NCBI GenBank assembly: GCA_963704165.1
Contig: CAVPHD010000009.1
Location: 288,001-352,000 of the forward strand
From: an uncultured delta proteobacterium
GTDB lineage: Bacteria > Myxococcota_A > UBA9160 > SZUA-336
DNA: 64,000 nt
Direction: 5' to 3'
In this document: positions 41,975-52,926 of the stretch, one piece after another
Layout: each line of letters opens with the position of its first letter
Numbering within the stretch: the stretch's first letter is position 1
Program-made: the position numbers and the translations under genes
Notes under the pieces: generated by a model
Seen by the model: the letters and a program-made list of their open reading frames with translations, nothing else
Told to the model about the DNA's origin: nothing
Databases searched by the model: none

Positions 41975-44626
<2,652 letters not shown>

Positions 44627-49259: not shown

Positions 49260-50342
49260 GTGATGAGGATGCGCAGATCGCTGACCTCGGGCCTCGTCGC
49301 ACTCGCCCTCCTCTTCGCCGGCACCGCGGCGAGTGATCCCTTTCCGCTCGGACCGCCGACGAGGGACGGACCCGTACCGATCCGTGCCCGCTTCGACCTG
49401 CGCGATCTGAACAACGTCGACGAGGAAGCCGAAACCTTCGAGTTCGAAGGCGTGCTGACGATCTCGTGGCACGACACGCGGCAGGCGTTCGATCCGTCGC
49501 AAGCCGGCGTGGACGAGAAGGTCTTTCAAGGCGCCTACCAGTTCAACGAGGTCTTCGACGGCTGGTTTCCGCAGGTGCTGCTCGTCAACGAGTCCGGGGT
49601 CCCTGGGACGCAGGGCGTCGTGCTCCGCGTGAAGCCGGACGGCGAGCTCACGCTGATCCAGACCCTGAACGCGACGGCCGAGACCGATCTCGACCTGCGG
49701 CGCTACCCACTCGACCGCCAGCGACTCGACGCGGTCTTCGAAGTCCTCGGATTCGACGAGACGGAGATCGTCTTCCAGCTCGGCGCCGCCGAGTCCGAGC
49801 TTCGCGACCGAGCGATCCACTTGCCCCAGTGGGCCGTCCACCAGGTGCGAACCTCGGTTCGGAGTCGCCCCGCTCCCCATGCCGGTCGCACGGGGACGGC
49901 GTCCGCGCTCGTCGTCAGCGTGGATCTCGAGCGCGAATCCTTCTTCATGGTCCGCCTCGTGATCCTTCCGCTGGTCCTGATGGTGATGCTCTCGTGGTCC
50001 GTGTTCTGGATGGAGCGATCGTCGCTCGGCGACCGCATCAGCGTCTCGTTCATCGGAATCCTGACGGCGGTCGCCTATCAGATGGTGGTGAGCGAGATCA
50101 TGCCGCAGATCTCCTACTTCACGCTGATCAACGGCATTCTCAACCTGAGCTTCGTGCTGATGTGCGCGACGGTCGTGATCAATCTGGTCGTCGGCGCACT
50201 CGACAAGGTCGGCAAGATCGAGATGGGCGATCGCGTCGATCGGCGCTGTCGGGTGATCTTCCCGCTCGTCTACTTCGGGCTCGTCCTGCTGATGGTCATC
50301 GCCTCATTCACGCTCGTGCCCGAGACGCGATACGGGTCCTGA
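49260..50342 (+). CDS. Prokaryotic pentameric ligand-gated ion channel (GLIC/ELIC-like)
   Basis: Signal peptide, beta-rich extracellular domain with W.P and RRYPLDRQ Pro-loop, then four TM helices with M2-M3 loop MPQISYFT. Confidence 0.85.
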   Translation: MMRMRRSLTSGLVALALLFAGTAASDPFPLGPPTRDGPVPIRARFDLRDLNNVDEEAETFEFEGVLTISWHDTRQAFDPSQAGVDEKVFQGAYQFNEVFDGWFPQVLLVNESGVPGTQGVVLRVKPDGELTLIQTLNATAETDLDLRRYPLDRQRLDAVFEVLGFDETEIVFQLGAAESELRDRAIHLPQWAVHQVRTSVRSRPAPHAGRTGTASALVVSVDLERESFFMVRLVILPLVLMVMLSWSVFWMERSSLGDRISVSFIGILTAVAYQMVVSEIMPQISYFTLINGILNLSFVLMCATVVINLVVGALDKVGKIEMGDRVDRRCRVIFPLVYFGLVLLMVIASFTLVPETRYGS

Positions 50343-50370: not shown

Positions 50371-50895
50371 TCAGCGCCGCGAGTAGCCGAGCTCTCCGAG
50401 TTTCCGCGCGATGTCCTGACCGGCGGTTGCGGTCTTCACGTTCTTGTCGATCGCGCGCACGACGCCCGCCTCGTCGATGTAGAACGTCCAGCGCTTGGCG
50501 AAGAAGCCGCCAAGACCCGAGACGCCGTACGCCTTCGCCGCTTCTCCGGTCGGGTCGGAGAGAAGCACGTGCTTCGCCTCGAGCGACTTCGCGAACTCGG
50601 CGTTCTTCTCCGCCGAGTCGAGGCTGACCATGAACACGGTCGCCCGGAAGGCCCCGATCACCTCGGCGCTGTCACGCAGCGCCGCGAGCTCGGCCGTTCA
50701 GCCGGGCGTGAACGCCTTCGGGAACCAGGCCAGCACGACGCCCTCTTTCCCGAGGAACTCCGCAAGCGAATGGGTCTTGCCGTCGGAGCCCTGAAGCGTG
50801 AAGTCCGGCGCGCGCGAACCGACGTCGGGATCGGCGGCGCGCGCGCCGTCCGCGACGCCGAAGAGAACCGCGAGCGACGCGAGCACGCGCTTCAT
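50371..50895 (-). CDS. Peroxiredoxin (AhpC/TSA, BCP-like) selenoprotein; in-frame TGA at 50698-50700
   Basis: APDFTL..WFPKAFTPG-TGA-TAE continues in frame to LLSDP..AKAYG..KRWTFYID; TGA sits at the PxxxTxxC cysteine. Confidence 0.9.
50664..50684 (-). other. Candidate bacterial SECIS hairpin
   Basis: CGGCGCUG-CGUGA-CAGCGCCG: 8-bp stem, loop begins 21 nt after UGA, G in loop position 2. Confidence 0.7.
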
Positions 50896-51311
50896 CCGGC
50901 GAGCGCCTTCCCGTGCTTGGCCATCCACTCGCCCATCGCCTTCTGCGCGGCCGGATCGAAGTCATCGCGAAGCAGCGCGATCCGATCCCCGTCGAACTCG
51001 GCCGTCTCCACGCCGGAGATGACGAGATCCGGAAGTCCCTTCTTCGTGTAGGACACGGACCACGTCATCTTCAGCGTGTTTCCCTTCACCGTCGGCCTGG
51101 CGAAGTCGGGCGTGCGGCTGTCCATTCGGCGGTCGAAACCGTCGACTCCCGCCTTGAGCTTGGCGAGCACGGCGTCGCGACCGCGCGCGGCGGGGTCACC
51201 TTCGTAGACCGCGCCCGGCGTGAAGTAGGTCTCGAGTCGTGACCAGTCGTCGTCGACGAGGCTCTCTTCGAATGCGTCCGCGTAGGCGAGATAGCGATCC
51301 AGGATGGTCAT
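50892..51311 (-). CDS. NTF2-like/SnoaL-like protein
   Basis: YFTPGAVY, GRDAV, FDGDRIALLRD; GAGGAGG RBS. Confidence 0.75.
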   Translation of the reverse strand: MTILDRYLAYADAFEESLVDDDWSRLETYFTPGAVYEGDPAARGRDAVLAKLKAGVDGFDRRMDSRTPDFARPTVKGNTLKMTWSVSYTKKGLPDLVISGVETAEFDGDRIALLRDDFDPAAQKAMGEWMAKHGKALAG

Positions 51312-51329: not shown

Positions 51330-52926
51330 TCAGTTTACCCTGCGGCCACCCTTCCAGTACTTCTCGCGCAGCACGAACTTCTGCAGCTTGCCGGTGGCGG
51401 TGCGCGGCAGCGCGTCGACGAAGTCGACCGAGGTCGGGCACTTGAAGTGGGCGAGGTGCTCGCGGCAGAAGGCGATCAGCTCCGGCTTCGGTCGCCGTCG
51501 CGCCCGGCGCGCAGGACGACGAGCGCCTTCGGCGTCTCGCCCCACTTCTCGTGCGGCACGCCGATCACCGCGCACTCGAGCACCGCCGGGTGCTGGTAGA
51601 GCGCGTCCTCGATCTCGGGCGAGCTGATGTTCTCGCCGCCGGAGATGATCACGTCCTTCTTGCGGTCGACGATGTGGATGTTGCCGATCTCGTCCCAGAC
51701 GCGCGAGGTCGCCGGTGTGGAAGTAGCCGTCGTAGATGGCCGCGGCGGTCTCGTCGGGCTGCTCCCAGTAGCCCTTGAAGACGACGTTCGAGCGCGCGCA
51801 GACCTCGCCGACGGCGTTGCCGTCCCTGGGCACGGGCTGGCCGTCGTCGTCGAGCACGCTGGATCTCGACGCCGATCGCGGCGCACGCCGGCGCGGGCGC
51901 GGCGCGCCCAGTCGCTCGCTGCCGGTGTCGCGAAGTCGGGCTGCGAGACGGTGAGCAGCGGCGCGGTCTCGGTGAGCCCGTAGATCTGGATGAACTCCCA
52001 GCCGAGCTCCTTCTCGAGGCGCTCGATGAACGCGGCCGGCGGCGGCGCACCGGCGACGGTGAAGCGCGGCCGGGTGCGTGATCGCGTGCTTCGCCTTGTC
52101 GGGGTAGTCGAGGATCGTGCGCAGCACCGCCGGCGCCATGCAGGCGAAGGTCACGCCTCTCGTCGCTCGATCAGCTCGATAGATGCCGCTGCGCGTCGAC
52201 CGCGCGCAGCACGACGTGGGTGCCGCCCATGCCGGTGAGCGCGTAGACGCCGCCCCAGCCGTTGCAGTGGAACATCGGCAGCGTCCAGAGCTCGACGTCG
52301 TCGTGGCGAGATGCGCAGGTGGGCGATGAGGTTGTAGGCGTTCATGTAGCAGTTGCGGTGCGTGAGCATCACGCCCTTGGGCCGCGCGGTGGTGCCCGAG
52401 GTGTAGTTGATCGAGACGACGTCGTTCTCGTCGTGCTCGACGCGCGGGCGGCGCGGTCGTCGGGCTCGGCTTCGATCAGCGCGTCCCAGTCCAGCCAGCC
52501 GGCGGGCGCGGCGCCGGTCGTCCTGCGCGACGATCCAGTGCTCGACGCTCGCGCAGCTGCGGGCGGATCTCGTCGACGACGCTCGGTGTACTCGTAGTCG
52601 ACGAGCACGGCGCTGCACGCCGGCGTGGTTGAGGATGTACTCGTGGTCGGCGGCGACCAGGCGGTAGTTGAGCGGCACGAGGATCGCGCCGATCTGGGCT
52701 GTCGCCGTAGAAGCTCTCGAGGAAGAAGTGCGAGTTGGGACTGAGGATGCAGACGCGGTCGCCCTGCTCGACGCCGAGCCGAGCAGCGCGTGCGCGAGCT
52801 GGTTCACGCGCGCCTGAAGCTCGCGGTAGCGTGAAGCGCCGCTCGCCGTCGACGATGGCGAGTCTTGTCCGGGTAGAGCTTCGCGGCGCGGCGCAGGAAG
52901 TCGTCGACGAGCAGCGGGACTTCCAC
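51330..52926 (-). CDS. Acyl-CoA synthetase (AMP-forming), multiply frameshifted
   Basis: [40 protein letters not shown] across frames. Confidence 0.88.

Follow-up and report, generated by a model that had tools for sequence, protein, structure and literature searches.

An in-frame TGA in the gene for a predicted exported, cysteine-free peroxiredoxin is almost certainly read as selenocysteine

Two short open reading frames on the minus strand of the window (the whole stretch of 64,000 nucleotides that was analysed, from an uncultured delta proteobacterium) raise the question of whether they are separate genes, a broken gene, or a single gene in which a stop codon is read as an amino acid. The first-pass annotation had proposed that the two frames, 50698-50928 (76 aa) and 50371-50661 (96 aa), are one, interrupted only by the TGA in FPKAFTPG*TAE. 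The open reading frame list of the window and the sequence bear this out, as the sole stop between the two is the TGA at 50700-50698, in the context WFPKAFTPG*TAEL. When TGA is translated as U, the frame 50895-50371 (-) encodes 174 residues, begins MKRVLASLAVLFGVADGARA from the ATG at 50895, has the TGA as codon 66 and, as had also been claimed, contains no cysteine at all. The features of the locus are collected in the table below.

Table. Features of the peroxiredoxin locus, in window coordinates
Feature	Position	Strand	Basis
Peroxiredoxin gene, AhpC/TSA family, closest to BCP/PrxQ and AhpE	50371..50895	(-)	One in-frame TGA; Pfam, structure model, Foldseek
Predicted Sec-pathway signal peptide, residues 1-20	50836..50895	(-)	Sequence heuristic; low pLDDT there only
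Active-site motif P59-K-A-F-T63-P-G-U66 (PxxxTxxU)	50698..50721	(-)	No variation at P59, T63 or position 66 over 119 aligned rows
In-frame TGA, inferred selenocysteine 66 (peroxidatic residue)	50698..50700	(-)	TGA/Cys codons in orthologous loci
Bacterial SECIS hairpin, stem CGGCGCUG / CAGCGCCG, loop CGUGA	50664..50684	(-)	Folding, conservation, bSECIS criteria
Leu70, the +4 position (second Cys in relatives, C/U-x-x-x-C)	50686..50688	(-)	Wider-locus comparison
Arg135, conserved catalytic arginine of peroxiredoxins	50491..50493	(-)	Invariant in 119 rows; aligned with Arg of Bcp1, Bcp4 and BcpB
Upstream SnoaL-like gene, stop overlapping the peroxiredoxin start	50892..51311	(-)	Context only, not a conserved partner

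The peroxiredoxin ATG overlaps the TGA stop of the SnoaL-like gene (ATGA, 50895-50892). This upstream gene is shared with only one relative among 30 loci, and no conserved partner gene was found beside the peroxiredoxin gene within the 1.5-kb flanks of those loci, in which local synteny holds within the genus only. A scan for promoters and terminators near the gene gave no signal above chance. On the other side, a bacterial pentameric ligand-gated ion channel gene (49260-50342, +) is convergent with the peroxiredoxin gene; it carries Pfam Neur_chan_LBD and Neur_chan_memb and scores 229.7 of 500 bits with NCBIfam LGIC_1.

The product belongs to a well-defined protein family. Pfam PF00578 (AhpC-TSA) matched residues 25-148 with an E value of 4.3e-30. 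No NCBIfam model reached its cut-off and 14 families scored below it, the closest being PRK09437 (BCP) with 76.6 of 140 bits; NF040737 (PrxU), which we take to be the Sec peroxiredoxin of Eubacterium acidaminophilum, missed its cut-off with 47.9 of 270 bits. The best solved relatives by sequence were Sulfolobus Bcp1 and Bcp4 and M. tuberculosis BcpB and AhpE. An AlphaFold2 model, with Cys replacing Sec, had a mean pLDDT of 91.6 and was low only in residues 1-20, and the same four structures were its top Foldseek matches (TM-scores 0.74-0.77). BCP came first by sequence and by Foldseek E value, and AhpE was equal by TM-score. PxxxTxxU aligns with the PxxxTxxC of the solved BCP structures, and Pro59, Thr63, position 66 and Arg135 show no variation across the 119 aligned proteins, with Arg135 reaching 100% in each of the four groups compared. 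Judged from the alignment, the protein retains the complete catalytic set of a peroxiredoxin, and the TGA falls at the peroxidatic position.

Among known peroxiredoxins, the protein belongs with the TxxU selenoproteins by every feature tested, and it sits between PrxQ and AhpE. TxxU Sec peroxiredoxins have long been known, with 43 genes in the Sargasso set (PMC1088965) and 253 in the GOS set (PMC2398784), and the Sec peroxiredoxin family is listed with an experimental reference in PMC13188914. Like those bacterial Sec peroxiredoxins (PF00578 / COG1225), the present gene has UGA at the peroxidatic position of PxxxTxxU, a SECIS directly downstream and widespread Cys homologues. The accessible parts of these accounts are silent on export or Cys-free members (PMC1088965, PMC2398784, PMC13188914), and the terms "signal peptide" and "periplasm" have 0 occurrences in PMC13188914. 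The BCP/PrxQ proteins Bcp1 (3drn), Bcp4 (3hjp) and BcpB (5epf) are the best matches (E 3e-17 to 3e-14, TM 0.74-0.75), but at about 30% identity only, and the second Cys of the wider family lies at +4 as against +5 in BCP paralogues; about a third of PrxQ proteins have no resolving Cys (PMC4749874). The 1-Cys peroxiredoxin AhpE of Mycobacterium tuberculosis likewise has no resolving Cys and matches the model as well as BCP does (TM 0.77), but it has Cys rather than Sec, employs mycothiol chemistry and gives a lower sequence score (51 bits versus 66 for BCP). The PrxU type (NF040737) shares Sec as the peroxidatic residue and differs in subfamily, its model having 233 positions. The Sec peroxiredoxin of Eubacterium acidaminophilum is the experimentally supported case in the table of PMC13188914. 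The peroxiredoxin is not PrxU, nor, going by the description of PprX, is it PprX.

Whether the TGA is read as Sec depends on the host as well as on the gene. The source genome (3.87 Mb, 84% complete) contains the machinery that the first-pass annotation had implied to lie elsewhere in it, and all four components exceed their cut-offs: selA with 508.6 bits (cut-off 267.9), selB with 281.8 bits (cut-off 242.25), selD with 334.3 bits (cut-off 125) and the tRNA-Sec gene selC with 72.9 (cut-off 47). The selD gene itself contains one in-frame TGA. A tRNA-Trp(CCA) is present, and the peroxiredoxin orthologues terminate with TAG, TAA or TGA at about one place; therefore UGA is not a general sense codon. 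The terminal TGA of the present gene matches TAG/TAA stops in orthologues, and a second Sec as resolving residue was ruled out on this ground.

Comparison across genomes provided direct evidence on the codon. A search for relatives covered 61 genomes of the class, and the 30 best orthologous loci were analysed; 22 have TGA and 8 have TGC. selA was found in all 22 TGA genomes and selB in 20, the two misses being 93% and 73% complete. Of twelve genomes in which selA was not matched, seven carry a member of the family, in each case with a Cys codon (TGC/TGT). Cys forms also occur in four selA-positive genomes, and no statistic is attached to the association of selA with TGA because kin genomes are not independent. 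In a scan of GTDB genomes, of which the best 80 of 591 loci were kept, the codon was TGA in 34 and Cys in 46; these 80 loci lie in records assigned to Acidobacteriota, Planctomycetota, Verrucomicrobiota and others, with the closest assigned to Myxococcota or Deltaproteobacteria, and the host is likely a Myxococcota-type diderm. In both locus sets, alignment of the homologues thus gave Cys/UGA pairs at the catalytic position.

These data bear on the possibility that the TGA stems from a sequencing error, marks a pseudogene through a nonsense mutation, or encodes Trp. Two genes of the window, at 42648-44626 (-) and about 51330-52900 (-), which by their motifs we take to be clpB-like and acyl-CoA ligase-like, are spread over several frames, and this suggests assembly indel errors rather than biology. 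As neighbouring genes show frameshifts, single bases of the assembly are not fully reliable, which lends the error reading some weight, and two database homologues have W at the position. However, that reading is already contradicted by the comparative data: 21 other genomes of the class, and genomes of other phyla too, have TGA at this codon and in every case also the hairpin described below, both halves of the gene are conserved, and Cys is the only residue encoded there in DNA loci without TGA. We consider its probability close to negligible. In the two homologues (P0040 and P0109) the Trp at the catalytic position is followed by LRDS; to judge from the protein records, the gene caller most likely read TGA as Trp. 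One DNA sequencing run holds a small share of this genome, and in these thin data positions 50661-50744 are covered by a short divergent contig, for which no difference is listed at 50698-50700, and a piece of 151 identical bases ends before the TGA codon. No RNA sequencing run holding this genome is listed.

A hairpin downstream of the UGA had been noted as SECIS-like, with an 8-bp stem and the loop CGUGA 21 nt after the UGA. Sequence and folding agree with that description: the stem pairs 50684-50677 with 50671-50664, and the loop occupies 50676-50672. The bSECIS criteria quoted in PMC13188914 call for a loop of 3-9 nt, a stem of 4-16 bp and a G in the first two loop positions, and further for a distance of 16-37 nt from the UGA and an energy of at most -7.5 kcal/mol. 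The present element has a loop of 5, a stem of 8, G as the second loop nucleotide, a distance of 21 nt and, in its six-pair form, an energy of -14.5 kcal/mol. Two lines of evidence were weaker. The stability of the hairpin is at chance level in DNA of 68% G+C (z = 0.02, -0.36, -0.88 and -1.66 in four windows versus shuffles), and stability alone was dropped as evidence. Similarly, a loose, generic SECIS rule passes 47 of 364 coding-like TGA contexts in the genome and is weak evidence. Because stability is not unusual at this G+C content, the case for the hairpin had to come from comparison.

Its significance lies in its conservation in TGA homologues as against Cys homologues. Both locus sets were pooled and duplicates removed, giving 97 distinct loci, with one TGA locus (L050) falling outside the pattern. 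Five inner pairs and a loop CG(U/G)GA, 21 nt after the UGA, were present in 48 of 48 distinct TGA homologues, a count that is partly by construction since the feature was defined on the TGA group. The contrast with the Cys forms is not: none of 49 has both the five inner pairs and the loop, and 5 of 49 have the pairs alone. In the alignment of 22 TGA rows, 88% of cells pair, which 0 of 500 shuffles reach, whereas in the 8 Cys rows 52% pair, which 315 of 500 shuffles reach. RNAalifold recovers the same stem unaided. Four inner pairs are invariant in the 22-row set, which says nothing by itself; the loop-closing pair is changed on both sides in 4 of 48 TGA loci (G-C to C-G three times, to U-A once). 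In 48 of 48 TGA loci, Arg within the loop is encoded by CGT or CGG, even though CGC accounts for 53% of the Arg codons in long open reading frames of the source genome. Collectively, the Sec machinery, the Cys/UGA pairs and the conserved hairpin support the reading of the in-frame TGA as a selenoprotein codon.

The peroxiredoxin has company in the genome: inspection of coding-like TGA contexts by eye gave at least nine further selenoprotein candidates, SelD among them. Four have a thioredoxin fold with UxxC or UGC, at C1:384254(-), C2:119981(-), C5:23912(-) and C7:167372(+); they comprise a membrane-anchored protein with HWUPFC, a SelL-like protein with FGUIFC, a ResA-like protein with WAxxUGC (296.7 of 300 bits) and an AhpC/TSA protein whose C-terminal domain weakly resembles DsbD_N. 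Further TGA candidates lie at C4:200490(+), C4:575889(+) and C12:173582(-), which we take to be PrdB-like (UxxC/UxxD), and at C5:252924(-), presumably DsbA-like (DYLUPWC). The candidate at C4:200490(+) has the SECIS loop CGUGA, identical to that of the peroxiredoxin, and the one at C12:173582(-) reads U-P-L-D and so lacks the usual Cys. At C4:403351-403765, a nearly identical unit occurs four times with a period of 138 bases; it was seen on a non-coding frame and probably reflects a repeat protein on the other strand.

The N-terminus of the protein begins with MKR, followed by a hydrophobic core and A-R-A before the likely cleavage site. The first-pass annotation had seen a signal-like peptide there, and our own heuristic (an extension of 14-35 residues with a net positive start and a hydrophobic core, used without a scored cytoplasmic control) concurs, predicting one in the query and in 107 of 120 protein homologues. 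Twin-Arg motifs and lipoboxes were each found in 0 of 120 homologues and are also absent from the query; Tat export and a lipoprotein were thus ruled out. That the export call is a heuristic, which 13 of 120 homologues fail, gives some room to a selenoprotein that is cytoplasmic or membrane-anchored, its N-terminal segment not being a cleaved signal peptide. Moreover, no cytoplasmic peroxiredoxin of BCP or AhpC type was found in the genome (84% complete), so that the cytoplasmic role would be vacant. Against this, the layout of positive start, hydrophobic core and A-x-A stands at a fixed distance before the domain in those 107 homologues and in other phyla, most BCP paralogues of the relatives lack such an extension (two have one), and the start is fixed by the ATGA overlap. 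We regard a cytoplasmic or anchored protein as very improbable and export as the preferred reading. The two BCP paralogues with signal-like N-termini, L160 (G036:C198) and L163 (G045:C151), have the +5 Cys and, by their sequences, would represent another type of exported peroxiredoxin within the class.

The absence of a resolving Cys had been read as part of a 1-Sec design. The absence from the protein stands, but it is not specific to Sec, because Cys orthologues of the same branch also have none. In 117 of the 118 protein homologues that have Cys as the catalytic residue, the mature part contains no further Cys, though these are protein records only and some might hide Sec. On this sequence comparison, lack of a resolving Cys characterises the Myxococcota branch, whether the form is Sec or Cys. 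In Planctomycetota, Acidobacteriota and other phyla, relatives carry a second Cys at +4, with either Sec or Cys as the catalytic residue; in the fetched BCP paralogues it is at +5. The 98 distinct proteins divide into 39 Sec and 12 Cys forms without the +4 Cys and 9 Sec and 38 Cys forms with it. Three other arrangements were encountered in relatives: L166 (G028:C33) and L167 (G037:C1) are BCP-type Sec peroxiredoxins with TPGU and no signal-like extension, with Cys at +47 and in one also at +5, and L156 (G047:C25) belongs to the family and has Sec, the same SECIS and Cys at +47.

Quick trees were built from 150 columns with both the catalytic and the +4 positions masked; the rooted tree had 87 rows, for which 14 of the 38 Cys-with rows were kept and five family rows and eight BCP outgroup rows were added. 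A branch with support of 100 separates the family from the BCP paralogues. Sec forms stand at the unresolved base, and Cys forms without the second Cys are nested inside the Sec forms without it at two places. Grouping all Sec forms in one clade is rejected (p-AU 1e-5), and therefore more than one switch between Sec and Cys has occurred. The data are compatible with a single loss of the +4 Cys (p-AU 0.83). Since a clade formed by the 39 Sec-without rows withstands the test (p-AU 0.115), reversion to Cys within Myxococcota is favoured, not proven. Sec-to-Cys changes are rare in bacteria according to PMC13188914.

From these results a mechanism can be proposed. First, SelB would bind the hairpin and Sec would be inserted at codon 66, which we hold to be almost certain. 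Second, the predicted signal peptide would very likely take the protein to the periplasm by the general secretion route and be cut near residue 20-21. Third, as the Pro59/Thr63/Sec66/Arg135 site is intact and the fold agrees, the selenolate would quite likely attack H2O2 or an organic peroxide and become a selenenic acid. Fourth, since the protein contains no Cys, an outside thiol would have to resolve the selenenic acid; 1-Cys and 1-Sec enzymes in general must react with an outside thiol (PMC4749874). Taken together, these four steps, that is, a single exported cysteine-free Sec peroxiredoxin that reduces peroxides and needs an outside thiol, make a probable account. Fifth, the first Cys of a periplasm-facing CxxC protein, most probably a TlpA-like thioredoxin, may form a mixed selenenyl-sulfide, its second Cys would release the selenol, and ScsB would re-reduce the CxxC protein.

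The fifth step is the least certain; by analogy, recycling through a TlpA-like protein and ScsB ranks first among the routes, at slightly less than an even chance, and all five steps jointly are possible rather than probable. The genome contains two three-domain DsbD-family genes with a Lys eight residues after the first membrane Cys, the feature that defines ScsB (PMC3322552), and three TlpA/ResA-like CxxC proteins with N-terminal hydrophobic segments. The two full-length ScsB-type DsbD proteins are L052 (C6, about 169-171 kb) and L053 (C12, about 202-203 kb), one of which is directly upstream of a PrxL-like gene. In Caulobacter, electrons pass from ScsB to TlpA to the periplasmic PrxQ protein PprX (PMC3322552). 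PprX of Caulobacter crescentus resembles the present protein in its PrxQ-type fold and its 20-residue signal sequence (here predicted), and the source genome likewise encodes ScsB-type carriers, TlpA-like proteins and a PrxL-like protein. The precedent is not exact, because PprX, as described in PMC3322552, has two distant cysteines and no Sec, whereas the present protein has Sec and no Cys. Furthermore, thioredoxin could not reduce engineered Sec forms of MsrB that lacked a resolving Cys (PMC1278935), which argues against the TlpA/ScsB step.

The MsrB result points instead to the main rival, in which the same exported selenoprotein is recycled by a small thiol (glutathione, cysteine or sulfide). 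Glutathione synthetase is over its cut-off in the genome, and among glutathione peroxidases the Cys enzymes with a resolving Cys use thioredoxin and the Se enzymes GSH (PMC10298544). AhpE, among the closest structures to the peroxiredoxin, is a 1-Cys enzyme that is reduced in M. tuberculosis via mycothiol/mycoredoxin or H2S (PMC8113037). However, no CydC thiol exporter was over the cut-off in the genome, which is 84% complete (best 256.9 of 329 bits). Small thiols are scarce in the periplasm, which also counts against this route, and we judge it rather unlikely.

A different role altogether would be that of a peroxide sensor or relay, or of a sacrificial scavenger, in which oxidation is passed to partners or a diselenide forms between two copies and the protein is not a high-turnover peroxidase. 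With no resolving residue, the outside thiol demanded of 1-Cys/1-Sec enzymes (PMC4749874) could be that of a target protein, and deletion of pprX caused no peroxide sensitivity (PMC3322552). Since the full catalytic set is conserved and no conserved regulator or target gene adjoins the peroxiredoxin gene, such a role appears improbable, and a peroxidase recycled by an outside thiol remains the preferred reading.

No new kind of system is revealed here. Sec peroxiredoxins, exported PrxQ and 1-Cys PrxQ have all been described separately; what appears new is the combination of Sec, predicted export and the absence of Cys. Titles and abstracts yielded no prior account of an exported Cys-free Sec peroxiredoxin in a search that left subscription literature mostly outside, and the supplements of PMC1088965 and PMC2398784 may list members.

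The finding matters in several ways. First, gene callers split or misread this gene in dozens of genomes, and its annotation is corrected here. Second, one scaffold occurs in all four natural combinations (Sec or Cys, with or without a second Cys) at about 50-70% identity, and it therefore offers a direct test of what selenium gives a peroxidase. The same natural set also tests if recycling of a selenenic acid is possible without a resolving Cys in the oxidising cell envelope. Third, and more speculatively, these proteins may form a cross-phylum exported family that was ancestrally Sec, lost its resolving Cys once in Myxococcota while still Sec, and so became a single-selenium, sulfur-free envelope peroxidase, recycled by a route undescribed for the periplasm and followed by repeated Sec-to-Cys reversions. 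This history is unlikely to hold in full. If true, it would make the family the peroxiredoxin counterpart of the Sec glutathione peroxidase, and the reversions would leave natural quartets of Sec and Cys forms, with and without a resolving Cys.
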